Shown here in pieces: positions 39,064-41,186 of a stretch of 54,435 nucleotides of DNA. The notes below the pieces were generated by a model. It searched no databases. It was not told the origin of the DNA and saw only the letters and a program-made list of their open reading frames with translations. The DNA comes from Escherichia phage PhiR12_1. Made by a program: the position numbers and the translations under genes. Positions within the stretch are counted from its first letter, which is position 1. Every line of letters begins with the position of its first letter. The stretch is taken from the sequence record PV340549; one strand, written 5' to 3'.

Positions 39064-39072
39064 TGGATTATG

Positions 39073-39094
39073 CCCACCGTCAGGTGGTTTTTTT
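39073..39094 (+). terminator. Rho-independent terminator after L
   Basis: ccacc-gtca-ggtgg followed by T7. Confidence 0.5.
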
Positions 39095-39119
39095 ATAAGG
39101 AGCAATCATGATTTACCCA

Positions 39120-39656
39120 TCAAACAACCCACCAGTTTGCCTGATTGGATACCAGCCTTGCAGTTTTTATGGAATTAATTATGCCATGCTCAAGAGCCTT
39201 GTTAGCATCCAAAATGGTCGAGTCTGCTATCAGGGATGCCCACCTAATATGGGTTCCGATGTCGATATTGAACGTCTCAACGAAGCGATCAAGATCGTTA
39301 TCGAGGCATTTCCCGTACTCTCTCAATCTGGCATGGTCGGCGGCTGGGGTGGCAAAGACCCATAATAGAGGATGTAACAGGAATCTTGATAATGGGTTTG
39401 CGAAACGTTCTGAGCCAGCCAGGAAAACGATATTAGCTATGGATTCAACATTGCTTATGTTGTGAGTTCTAACGGTAACAGGGAGTGACTTAAGAAAGTT
39501 ATACGCAGTAAAGCCAGCGGCAGTTTCCCCTCCCTGACTTGATATATGGATATTTAATTCAGTTGCGCCTTGAGATAATGCGGTGAGACAGTGGTTCTGA
39601 AGTTGCCCAACAGTGGCAGTGTTAACGGGGCATAAGAAATGAATTGTGTGCAGCAT
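39120..39656 (-). CDS. ClpP-family serine peptidase homologue (moron, co-operonic with Mnt-like repressor)
   Basis: 178 aa; colinear with ClpP core: HISSQGG (INSPGG), SNVESIANIVFLAG (GQAASMGAFLLTAG, Ser retained), FLLHPL (MIHQP, His retained), EHGIINSI (EYGLVDSI). Start overlaps upstream stop (TAATG). Confidence 0.6.
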   Translation of the reverse strand: MLHTIHFLCPVNTATVGQLQNHCLTALSQGATELNIHISSQGGETAAGFTAYNFLKSLPVTVRTHNISNVESIANIVFLAGSERFANPLSRFLLHPLLWVFATPAADHARLREYGKCLDNDLDRFVETFNIDIGTHIRWASLIADSTILDANKALEHGIINSIKTARLVSNQANWWVV

Positions 39657-39904
39657 TATTTTTCATCCTTACCATACATGGTCTTTAGCGTCTCAAGCAG
39701 CGCCTCTTTGAATTTGTCAGCTTCTTGGTTAGCGAATCCTTCAAGTGAGCGAGGGCCATCAAGATTATCAACATGTTTTTGAAGGATAAGCACAATCTCT
39801 GAGTTCATTGATCTGCCGTTTTTATCCGCTTCCTGCTGAATGCGTTTCTTTAAATAGTCTGGAATCCTAATTCCCAAGGGACTGATATCTCTTGCACCTT
39901 TCAT
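39656..39904 (-). CDS. Arc/Mnt-type ribbon-helix-helix repressor
   Basis: MKGARDISPLGIRIPDYLKKRIQQEADKNGRSMNSEIVLIL: RHH pattern; strong aggagg RBS. Confidence 0.6.
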   Translation of the reverse strand: MKGARDISPLGIRIPDYLKKRIQQEADKNGRSMNSEIVLILQKHVDNLDGPRSLEGFANQEADKFKEALLETLKTMYGKDEK

Positions 39905-40014
39905 TTTTCCTCCTGCACGCTGTAGCATTGCTACACAGTGTAGGCAAAAAAACTTTGACTTTAAATAAGCACGGTGTAGTATTTAGTTATCACGGTGTAG
40001 CAATTGGGAAAGAA
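39905..40014. promoter_or_regulatory. divergent promoter/operator region of the immI-like module
   Basis: Perfect palindromes tgtagcaTtgctaca (39921-39935) and ctacacAgtgtag (39931-39943); direct repeats cacggtgtag (39970-39979, 39991-40000); -35 TTGACT (39955-39960) and -10 TAGTAT (39977-39982). Confidence 0.45.
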
Positions 40015-40155
40015 ATGAAAGTTAGAGATATCGCTCCATTAGGGATTCGTATCCCGCCAGAGATTAAAGAAAAATTGAAGGAAAAGGCTAAGGAGGAGGG
40101 CAGGTCTTTAAATTCAGAAATAGTGCAGCGTCTTATTCGCAGCCTAAAAAGTTGA
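40015..40155 (+). CDS. Arc-like ribbon-helix-helix repressor (46 aa)
   Basis: MKVRDIAPLGIRIPPEIKEKLKEKAKEEGRSLNSEIVQRLIRSL; paralogous to the divergent gene at 39656-39904. Confidence 0.5.
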   Translation: MKVRDIAPLGIRIPPEIKEKLKEKAKEEGRSLNSEIVQRLIRSLKS

Positions 40156-40217
40156 AGCCCCAACTGCTGTAACAGTCAGGGCTTCGGTATCAACAAATCG
40201 GATTAGGAAATATTGAC

Positions 40218-41132
40218 ATGAAAAGTATAGCAAAGGCACAAAACGATTTCACCATCTTCAAATTCGGCGACAGTGAAATCCGCGTCATCAACAAGTGCGG
40301 TGAGCCGTGGTTTGTAGCAAAAGATGTTTGTGATGCTTTAAATCTGACTAACTCACGCAAGGCGCTTACTGCACTTGATGACGATGAAAAGGGAGTAACT
40401 TTAAGTTACACCCTTGGTGGTGAGCAGAATTTAAGCATTGTGAGCGAATCAGGTATGTATACATTGGTTCTGCGTTGCCGCGATGCCGTCAATAAAGGTT
40501 CAGTCCCGCACAAATTCCGCAAATGGGTGACAGCTGAAGTTTTGCCATCCATTCGTAAAACGGGGTCTTACGGAAATACACTGAAAGCTAAAAAGGCGTT
40601 GCCGGGGAAAATCACTACTGAACAGCAGGAAGCCATTAAACAACTCGTCATGAGTCGCGGTCAGTCTCTGCCAAAGGAAAAACAGGCGAAGGCGATGATC
40701 ACCATGTGGTCGTCACTGAAATCACATTTTGGATGTTCGTACAAAGAAATCAGCGAGGAGCAGTTTACCGAAGCTCTGTCACTTGCTGCTCGCGTTCCGC
40801 TTGAAGGAGAGTTAATCGGCAAACAAGAGAAGAGCACCAACGAGCTTTCCGCAAAAGAAACAGACAGCCTTGTATGGCTGTGGGATTATGCCAACCGCTC
40901 ACAGGCATTGTTCCGTGAGTTGTATCCCGCATTAAAACTGATTCAGTCTGGCTATTCCGGCATATGCCACGACTACGGCTATGAGTTCTCGTATATCATC
41001 GGGAGGGCGAGGGGCGTTTTAATTAATCACACGCGGGATATAGATATTTATGAGCCTGACGGGCCGACGAACCTTCTGGCATGGGAAAGGCTTAAGAACA
41101 AAGAGTTGCCGCCTTCACTGCATCGCTACTGA
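40218..41132 (+). CDS. Bro-N domain antirepressor-like protein with shared C-terminal module
   Basis: N-terminal Bro-N pattern ([24 protein letters not shown]...[14 protein letters not shown]); C-terminal 96 aa identical to that of the 15719-16432 protein. Confidence 0.7.
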
Positions 41133-41175
41133 CAATTGACAACTTAACAAACCCAGCTTCGGCTGGGTTTTTTAT
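40844..41175 (+). repeat. 332-bp exact direct repeat, copy 2 (copy 1 at 16144-16475)
   Basis: Identical to 16144-16475 including stop codon and terminator. Confidence 0.95.
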
Positions 41176-41186
41176 CAGGAGTTCTC

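Follow-up and report, generated by a model that had tools for sequence, protein, structure and literature searches.

A ClpP-like gene coupled to an mnt-like repressor gene in a P22 immI-type cassette between tail genes L and K of the lambda-like Escherichia phage PhiR12_1

Why would a temperate phage couple a gene for a ClpP-like protein to the gene for a repressor, inside an antirepressor cassette that lies in the middle of its tail operon? The question is raised by Escherichia phage PhiR12_1 (sequence record PV340549), whose 54,435-nucleotide stretch was analysed at full length and is referred to below as the window. PhiR12_1 is a lambda-like temperate coliphage whose tail genes H, M and L, and then K, I and J, are collinear with those of lambda except for 2.1 kb that separate L (38365-39063), the left flank of the insert, from K (41187-41924), its right flank. 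An earlier reading made from the letters alone, here called the sequence-only reading, had proposed that an insert of this size interrupts an otherwise lambda-colinear tail operon, and the layout of the open reading frames (ORFs) and the collinearity with lambda both agree with it. The region from 38900 to 41400 is 100% identical to that of the Escherichia phages PhiR12_4 and PhiR12_5. Antirepressor cassettes of this kind are known, and their location between L and K is already common in the records of Shiga toxin (Stx) phages; the novelty lies in the ClpP-like gene, which is coupled to mnt on the lysogen side and belongs to a clade of short ClpPs that is borne by prophages and uncharacterised.

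The ClpP-like gene lies on the minus strand at 39120..39656 and encodes a protein of 178 amino acids (aa), which matches the Pfam family CLP_protease with 44.9 bits against a gathering threshold of 20.2. An AlphaFold2 model of the monomer, built from 28 family members, gave a predicted local distance difference test score (pLDDT) of 91.5 and a predicted template modelling score (pTM) of 0.88. In a Foldseek comparison with the PDB, the top match was 9uxt_A (template modelling (TM) score 0.92, root-mean-square deviation 2.1 A), with dozens of canonical ClpPs ranking next (TM score ~0.8, E-value 1e-12), and a search of the PDB by sequence returned the same entry at an E-value of 2e-35 (2.3e-35), with the other ClpPs reaching 2e-7 at best. 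The sequence-only reading had named a placement outside the ClpP fold by profile searches as the outcome that would speak against it; the Pfam match, the model and the Foldseek comparison all place the protein inside that fold, and, given the predicted structure, we regard it as near-certain that this is a genuine ClpP-fold protein. It is, nevertheless, not a typical one, as the ClpP equivalog and subfamily models of NCBIfam score it at 18-40 bits, far below their cut-offs of 228-361. A search of 1.84 billion cluster representatives retrieved 515 clusters at E-values up to 1e-10, nearly all of them 180-190 aa in length, which indicates that the short ClpPs are a distinct and sizeable group. 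The gene is under purifying selection, as judged by a ratio of nonsynonymous to synonymous substitution rates (dN/dS) of 0.08 against the 79%-identical Pectobacterium homologue, with the caveat that dS is saturated beyond this comparison and only two dN/dS values are usable.

Alignment with E. coli ClpP bears on the proposal of the sequence-only reading that the protein keeps the catalytic residues. This holds for two of the three: Ser72 and His95 align with Ser97 and His122 of E. coli ClpP and are invariant in the 28 family members. It does not hold for the third, since the position of Asp171 is occupied by Ser146 (in the family as a whole, by S, A, T or G) and the adjoining Asp145 is not conserved in the family, leaving the protein short of the full Ser-His-Asp triad of peptidase family S14. 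The protein begins at the position of Leu24 of E. coli ClpP, which implies that the N-terminal axial loops are absent. Moreover, the positions Y60, Y62, F82, I90, L114, L48 and F49, which from the literature on ClpP with acyldepsipeptides (ADEP) or ClpX we take to form the IGF/ADEP pocket, have changed to N, H, S, H, N, T and A, respectively, and the pocket for unfoldase docking, which in canonical ClpP is hydrophobic and receives the IGF/IGL loops of ClpX and ClpA, is polar for the most part. The protein keeps D...HAR, the handle motif, which it shares even with E. coli ClpP. The top structural match, 9UXT, is PpClpP1 of Pseudomonas plecoglossicida, an N-terminally truncated ClpP (PMC12900304) that was described in 2026 as a paralogue encoded on the chromosome and is the only characterised relative of the protein described here. 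Cryo-electron microscopy and analytical ultracentrifugation established PpClpP1 as a homotetradecamer with an axial pore of 42.7 A, and its triad, Ser73-His96-Pro151, requires the Ser and the His but can dispense with the third residue (PMC12900304). Its peptidase activity is 13-fold below that of the canonical paralogue and it does not bind ClpX, yet together with canonical ClpP it forms a heterotetradecamer that degrades ClpX-dependent substrates faster (PMC12900304). The only characterised relative is, in short, a modulator of housekeeping ClpXP, and alternative ClpP subunits that tune ClpXP have also been documented in P. aeruginosa (PMC13056064).

In phages, homologues of ClpP routinely receive one of two labels, head protease and "ATP-dependent Clp protease proteolytic subunit", and the short-ClpP clade is neither. 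The first of these labels, under which the protein would be a head-maturation (prohead) protease or the remnant of one, draws on matches to PHROG 94 "head maturation protease" (E-value 1.6e-20) and to the NCBIfam model Clp_rel_HeadMat (NF045542, E-value 3.7e-13), and the gene is so annotated in the GenBank record of the P22-like phage phiv205-1. However, the NF045542 match scores 49.7 bits where the curated cut-off is 120, the gene belongs to an immunity cassette in which it runs antisense to the late genes, well away from those for the portal and the capsid, and PhiR12_1 has a lambda-type C/Nu3 protease of its own at 29141-30646. The best structural matches are likewise cellular ClpPs rather than prohead proteases, and a gene that is intact and under purifying selection is not a remnant. 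We therefore rate a role in head maturation as highly improbable, and regard it as effectively refuted by the score, the position and the presence of C/Nu3.

The ClpP-like gene is embedded in a set of genes whose products are homologous to those of the immI region of phage P22. Immediately upstream on the minus strand, and preceded by AGGAGG, is a gene for an 82-aa ribbon-helix-helix repressor (39656..39904; Pfam Arc, E-value 6e-8) that shares 33% identity with P22 Mnt over its full length, including the C-terminal part (E-value 1e-13). The last base of the TAA stop codon of this Mnt-like gene is also the first base of the ATG with which the ClpP-like gene starts (TAATG), an overlap that supports the translational coupling suggested by the sequence-only reading. 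Transcribed in the opposite direction is a gene for a second ribbon-helix-helix repressor of 46 aa (40015..40155, plus strand; Pfam Arc, E-value 5e-13), with 43% identity to P22 Arc (E-value 2e-10). It is followed on the plus strand by a gene for a 304-aa antirepressor (40218..41132) that combines an N-terminal Bro-N domain (Pfam, E-value 2.5e-20) with a C-terminal P22 Ant domain (P22_AR_C, E-value 3.3e-25). The antirepressor belongs to PHROG 245, anti-repressor Ant (E-value 1e-103), and its residues 134-304 are 62% identical to P22 Ant (E-value 2e-70). On the minus strand at 40150..40216 we also identified the antisense RNA sar, which matches Rfam RF00262 over the whole of the model (positions 1-68 of 68) with 69.4 bits against a gathering threshold of 43 and an E-value of 1e-13. 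It folds into two hairpins with a minimum free energy of -28.3 kcal/mol (z -6.45); the 5' part is complementary to the ant ribosome-binding site, and the 3' hairpin is a terminator in the terminator scan and near-identical to its counterpart in an alignment with the P22 sar region. A Psar-like promoter, with GTGAAA and TATACT separated by a 17-nt spacer and an extended TG, was found by the promoter scan at 40224..40252 on the minus strand; it lies within the start of ant, at a position that matches the annotated P22 sar promoter. The picture drawn by the sequence-only reading, of divergent Arc/Mnt-type genes with a Bro-N antirepressor on the right that mirrors mnt-arc-ant of P22, is thus confirmed by the Pfam Arc matches of both small ORFs, by the two antirepressor domains, by homology to P22 Mnt, Arc and Ant, and by an RNA above the Rfam threshold; sar itself had been missed in that reading and is an addition to it. 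A second gene annotated as an antirepressor is present in the nin region (15719-16432), where it precedes Roi (16507-17229), and PhiR12_1 thus carries two antirepressor-type genes.

The region between the divergent mnt and arc genes had also been described as rich in operators, and the pattern CACNSTGTAG is indeed enriched there beyond chance: it has 6 matches in the window against 0.42 expected, a number reached in none of 100 shuffles, and five of the six fall within 85 bp, at 39916-40000. Repeat search and pattern enrichment delimit an operator-like inverted repeat at 39916..39940, composed of the two half-sites CACGCTGTAGCA and TGCTACACAGTG with a T between them, and repeat search found two tandem 21-bp repeats on the plus strand at 39961..40002, each of which ends in a half-site CACGGTGTAG(T/C)A. 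One type of half-site, CACNGTGTAGCA, accounts for both the inverted pair and the tandem repeats. The promoter scan located a Pant-like promoter ahead of arc and ant on the plus strand (39955..39982; TTGACT, 16-nt spacer, TAGTAT), at a position analogous to that of the annotated P22 Pant. A predicted half-site overlaps this promoter, and the tandem repeats overlap its -10 element and start region. In their N-terminal 35 aa, which include the DNA-reading strand, the Mnt-like and the Arc-like protein share 57% identity, and N-termini so alike fit a single type of half-site. Taken together with the one type that is visible, this raises the possibility that the two repressors may compete for the same predicted sites, unlike Mnt and Arc of P22.

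The cassette can be delimited at 39073-41173, the extent of the blastn blocks that it has in common with P22-like phages (phiv205-1 and other loci), and each end carries a terminator on the plus strand. At the left end, directly after L, the terminator scan detected an intrinsic terminator (CCACC-GTCA-GGTGG followed by a T run) at 39074..39097. The right-end terminator at 41145..41167 (ACCCAGC-TTCG-GCTGGGT and a T run) was absent from the output of the consensus terminator scan and was recognised by alignment to the annotated ant terminator of P22, to which it is identical; the ribosome-binding site and ATG of K come after it. Both terminators are presumably read through by Q-modified late transcription. 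It is near-certain that 39073-41173 is a horizontally exchanged "ant moron" that corresponds by homology to the whole of immI, the secondary-immunity cassette of P22. The concept of the ant moron covers the immI region in two papers (PMC2629481, PMC8022706), neither of which mentions a Clp-type gene. The arrangement of ClpP-like, Mnt, Arc and Ant genes is also found in phiv205-1 (a Lederbergvirus) and in a P22-like Pectobacterium prophage, where it takes the canonical immI position, with the genes for the ejection proteins on one side and the tailspike gene on the other. This means that the immI cassette, with sar and both terminators, moves as a unit between the late operons of podoviruses and siphoviruses.

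The two junctions of the cassette, 39064-39115 and 41140-41195, are imperfect direct copies of ~45 bp. Each consists of a hairpin, a T run, TAT, (A/C)AGGAG, five bases and an ATG, and the hairpins differ by compensatory changes in the stem (CCACC/GGTGG on the left, CCAGC/GCTGG on the right). The right copy is the real start of K, and from the ATG of the left copy (39108) an ORF of 85 aa runs antisense to the ClpP-like gene; phiv205-1 has the same left junction. These copies could be a substrate for recombination in cassette exchange, or a scar.

Is the ClpP-like gene a working part of the immI switch, or a passenger? Close relatives of the gene occur in E. coli, Pectobacterium, Leclercia, Serratia and Providencia, and more distant ones (52-60% identity) in Klebsiella, Pantoea, Citrobacter, Proteus, Rahnella and Chromobacterium. 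Among 5426 complete E. coli genomes, 128 (2.4%) carry the gene at an identity of at least 95%, always on the chromosome and including the type strain ATCC 11775, and the full PhiR12_1 arrangement is present in only 12 of the 5426. We surveyed the gene context at 80 viral loci with a homologue from IMG/VR. A Mnt-like gene lies directly upstream on the same strand at 34 of these, ten of them at the L/K junction and the rest P22-like. For the clade formed by E. coli and Pectobacterium (at least 79% identity), the linkage to a Mnt-like gene is complete (34/34 viral loci) and an Ant gene is also present at 30 of the 34 loci. At the remaining 46 of the 80 viral loci there is no Mnt, Arc or Ant, although two of these hold only truncated or disrupted copies. 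The sequence-only reading had called a stand-alone ClpP-like protease alongside a lysogenic repressor unusual; this needs qualification, as the gene is a recurrent prophage moron and antirepressor cassettes at L/K are common in Stx phages. As a side observation, two or three Mnt-like genes precede the ClpP-like gene in tandem and on the same strand at the IMG/VR loci L022 and L024, where they stand at -254, -541 and -834 in L024.

Translational coupling to mnt, in PhiR12_1 as well as at every one of the 34 loci of the close clade, and the presence of ant at 30 of these are what might be expected if the protein were a regulatory protease specific to immI, which degrades Ant (or Arc or Mnt) and thereby adds a post-translational layer of safety against leaky or incoming antirepressor in the lysogen; its expression would, moreover, be reciprocal to that of ant. 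A regulatory protease had been put forward in the sequence-only reading, and this role is weakened by the survey. The region is strongly mosaic: the DNA of the gene stays 97-99% identical between loci whose Mnt, Arc and Ant segments either cannot be aligned or are only 80-86% identical, so that it shows no co-variation with the adjacent alleles as these are swapped. The immI modules of P22 and of the Stx phages work without it, and 46 of the 80 loci with a homologue have no immI genes. In addition, general ClpP biochemistry and the failure of PpClpP1 to bind ClpX make it unlikely that a barrel could degrade folded Ant if it has no unfoldase to work with. We consider a regulatory function of this kind quite improbable. 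The ClpP-like gene is cargo attached to the immI switch and not a part of the switch, as indicated by its near-constant sequence amid swapped Mnt, Arc and Ant alleles, from the Stx cassettes that lack it and from the loci devoid of immI genes.

The stand-alone copies are the distant homologues and lie antisense in late operons, whereas the close homologues always come after a Mnt-like gene. At the 44 scorable stand-alone loci, the homologue is flanked by an opposite-strand gene on both sides (23 loci) or on one side (21 loci). The sites include the intervals from spanin or endolysin genes to the small terminase gene and from Mu-like tail genes to the tape measure gene, and positions beside tail-fibre assembly or invertase genes, all of which are classic moron positions. 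We searched beside the stand-alone homologues for a conserved partner gene and found none, the same-strand neighbours varying between loci. A gene for a 182-aa protein was nonetheless seen 78 bp upstream, on the same strand, of the stand-alone ClpP-like gene at the IMG/VR loci L072-L078; it has no Pfam or PADLOC match, and the pair may be a two-gene moron. The late operons of prophages, in which these homologues sit as lone antisense morons, are where genes for exclusion and defence are typically located, and the ClpP-like gene does occupy, as the sequence-only reading stated, the position downstream of mnt in which P22 holds orf59a and sieA. The protein might thus fill the sieA slot functionally as well, through a gate-less barrel that by itself degrades those proteins of an incoming phage that are unfolded or disordered, ejection (pilot) or early proteins for instance, and a pore as wide open as that of 9UXT would admit unfolded chains without an unfoldase. 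On the other hand, the four module proteins matched none of the defence and candidate families of PADLOC-DB 2.0 at E-values up to 1, nor did four neighbours of the moron copies, and the protein has no similarity to P22 SieA (BLASTP E-value 16). The low intrinsic activity of PpClpP1 and the setting of the Pseudomonas chromosomal clade among stress genes, not in defence islands, also count against superinfection exclusion or defence, which we judge to be unlikely but not negligible.

The sequence of the protein and the behaviour of PpClpP1 suggest a role in the proteolytic machinery of the host. P22 Mnt is the lysogenic repressor of Pant, and it is through the leftward mnt transcript that immI is expressed during the lysogenic phase. 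By analogy, the rightward Pant-like promoter of PhiR12_1 would drive arc and ant, and the mnt operon would be transcribed leftward, with four to five copies of the predicted half-site over and between the two; sar would cover the ant ribosome-binding site, and Ant would inactivate the primary (c2/cI-type) repressor. The coupling of the ClpP-like gene to the end of mnt implies that its product should be made whenever Mnt is, and by this comparison the protein would be made together with Mnt in the lysogen, reciprocally to Ant. Expression in the lysogen is accordingly graded by us as reasonably probable. The protein would most likely assemble into a double ring of the ClpP type which, to judge from its sequence, would lack both the axial gate and the hydrophobic docking pocket for ClpX or ClpA, and which by analogy with PpClpP1 would show weak peptidase activity when on its own. 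Acting as an accessory ring, either unpaired or together with a ring of host ClpP, it would alter ClpP-dependent proteolysis in the lysogen and so bring about lysogenic conversion. This proposal links two observations, namely a sequence that predicts a barrel unable to gate or to dock ClpX or ClpA and a relative, PpClpP1, that pairs with housekeeping ClpP and boosts ClpXP. Taken as a whole chain, an accessory ClpP ring that alters host proteolysis in lysogens is our favoured but tentative explanation, to which we give slightly less than an even chance; the pairing with host ClpP, considered alone, is a possibility to which we lean a little less.

Several points weigh against this accessory-ring explanation. 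Transcription of mnt and the ClpP-like gene in the lysogen would follow from the P22 paradigm, and the consensus promoter scan found no leftward promoter of the Pmnt type at its threshold. For the oligomeric state of the protein and its pairing with E. coli ClpP, the proposal extrapolates from PpClpP1, which has 38-40% identity and is not a phage gene but a chromosomal gene of Pseudomonas next to KGG stress genes, and the identity to E. coli ClpP is only 25%, from which it follows that hetero-rings may not form. The strict linkage to a Mnt-like gene in the close clade could, moreover, reflect a functional tie to immI rather than convenient sharing of a promoter. No phenotype is on record for any phage-borne member; a search of the literature on phage or moron ClpPs of this type returned only the mention of an unrelated clpP in a Staphylococcus prophage, and one on the PhiR12 phages returned nothing relevant. 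The biological benefit is something that we infer.

The short-ClpP gene is a lysogeny-side moron that is also carried by prophages of Klebsiella, Pectobacterium, Proteus, Pantoea, Citrobacter and Chromobacterium. If what holds for PpClpP1 is true of the phage protein, prophages would have a direct handle on one of the central regulators of host proteostasis, with RpoS, SOS proteins and the replication and repressor proteins of phages within its reach. A broader idea, that the enterobacterial short ClpPs are an unrecognised class of prophage genes for lysogenic conversion or defence, whose gate-less ring docks onto host ClpP and reprogrammes proteolysis by ClpXP and ClpAP, is more doubtful still. 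If it is true, the lysogen would differ in its stress responses, in the stability of its prophages or in how susceptible it is to other phages, and the mnt-coupled copy would be wired directly into the lysogenic state.

Other features of PhiR12_1 were observed outside the cassette. An IS21-type insertion, consisting of a transposase and its ATP-binding helper on the minus strand (48228-50530), interrupts the tail-fibre region downstream of J. Between N and cI, in the position of lambda rexAB, is a gene annotated "T2SS GspM containing protein" (9694-10719), which is probably another lysogen-expressed moron. Relative to PhiR12_4 (PV340553.1), coordinates are offset by +14 in the early region and by +835 in the late region; the change in offset implies that PhiR12_1 is ~821 bp longer than PV340553.1 between Roi and the C/Nu3 gene, roughly at 17229-29141.

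One of the closest known systems is that of the long-tailed Stx phages, for example Stx2a_WGPS6, 2851, 1717 and YYZ-2008, which carry a Mnt-like/Arc/Ant cassette at the same L/K junction. They have the same terminator on the left, behind L, as PhiR12_1, and the C-terminal half of their Ant is related and runs into K (blocks of 93% and 90% identity). Unlike PhiR12_1, however, the Stx-phage cassette has a gene for a 106-aa Arc-family protein adjoining L and no ClpP-like gene. Another is immI of P22, with which the PhiR12_1 cassette shares divergent mnt and arc-ant operons, the sar RNA, the same ant terminator and a slot for cargo downstream of mnt; the half-sites over the Pant-like promoter may correspond to the operators that overlap Pant in P22. 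The P22 region lies between gene 16 and the tailspike gene 9, whereas that of PhiR12_1 is between L and K of a lambda-like siphovirus, and the N-terminal domain of PhiR12_1 Ant differs from that of P22 in being a Bro-N domain. P22 has distinct Omnt and Oarc operators where PhiR12_1 apparently has one type of half-site, and its cargo is orf59a and sieA, the latter with its own promoter, in place of a ClpP-like gene coupled to mnt.

With canonical ClpP (MEROPS S14, for example that of E. coli), the protein has in common the fold (TM score ~0.8) and the Ser and His in register. It differs from the E. coli enzyme in its sequence (25% identity), in the loss of the first 23 mature residues, which comprise the axial loops and the start of helix A, and in the replacement of Asp171 by Ser. 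The closest parallel is PpClpP1, which is 38-40% identical to the ClpP-like protein by alignment and resembles it in its length of ~180 aa, its N-terminal truncation and its Ser-His pair with a non-acidic third residue (Pro151 in PpClpP1, Ser146 here). The tetradecamer, the weak activity and the pairing with canonical ClpP have been demonstrated for PpClpP1 and would extend to the PhiR12_1 protein by analogy. We considered whether PpClpP1 might itself be a prophage gene and ruled this out, as its clade is a widespread chromosomal gene of Pseudomonas flanked by KGG, DUF6555 and metabolic genes. At the Pseudomonas loci L091-L096, the short ClpP is consistently found beside small genes of the KGG-repeat (stress-protein) type and DUF6555 genes, in two chromosomal neighbourhoods, a context that is not discussed in the published study of PpClpP1 (PMC12900304). 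The Pseudomonas clade is thus chromosomal, whereas the enterobacterial clade of short ClpPs, to which the PhiR12_1 protein belongs, is borne by prophages.

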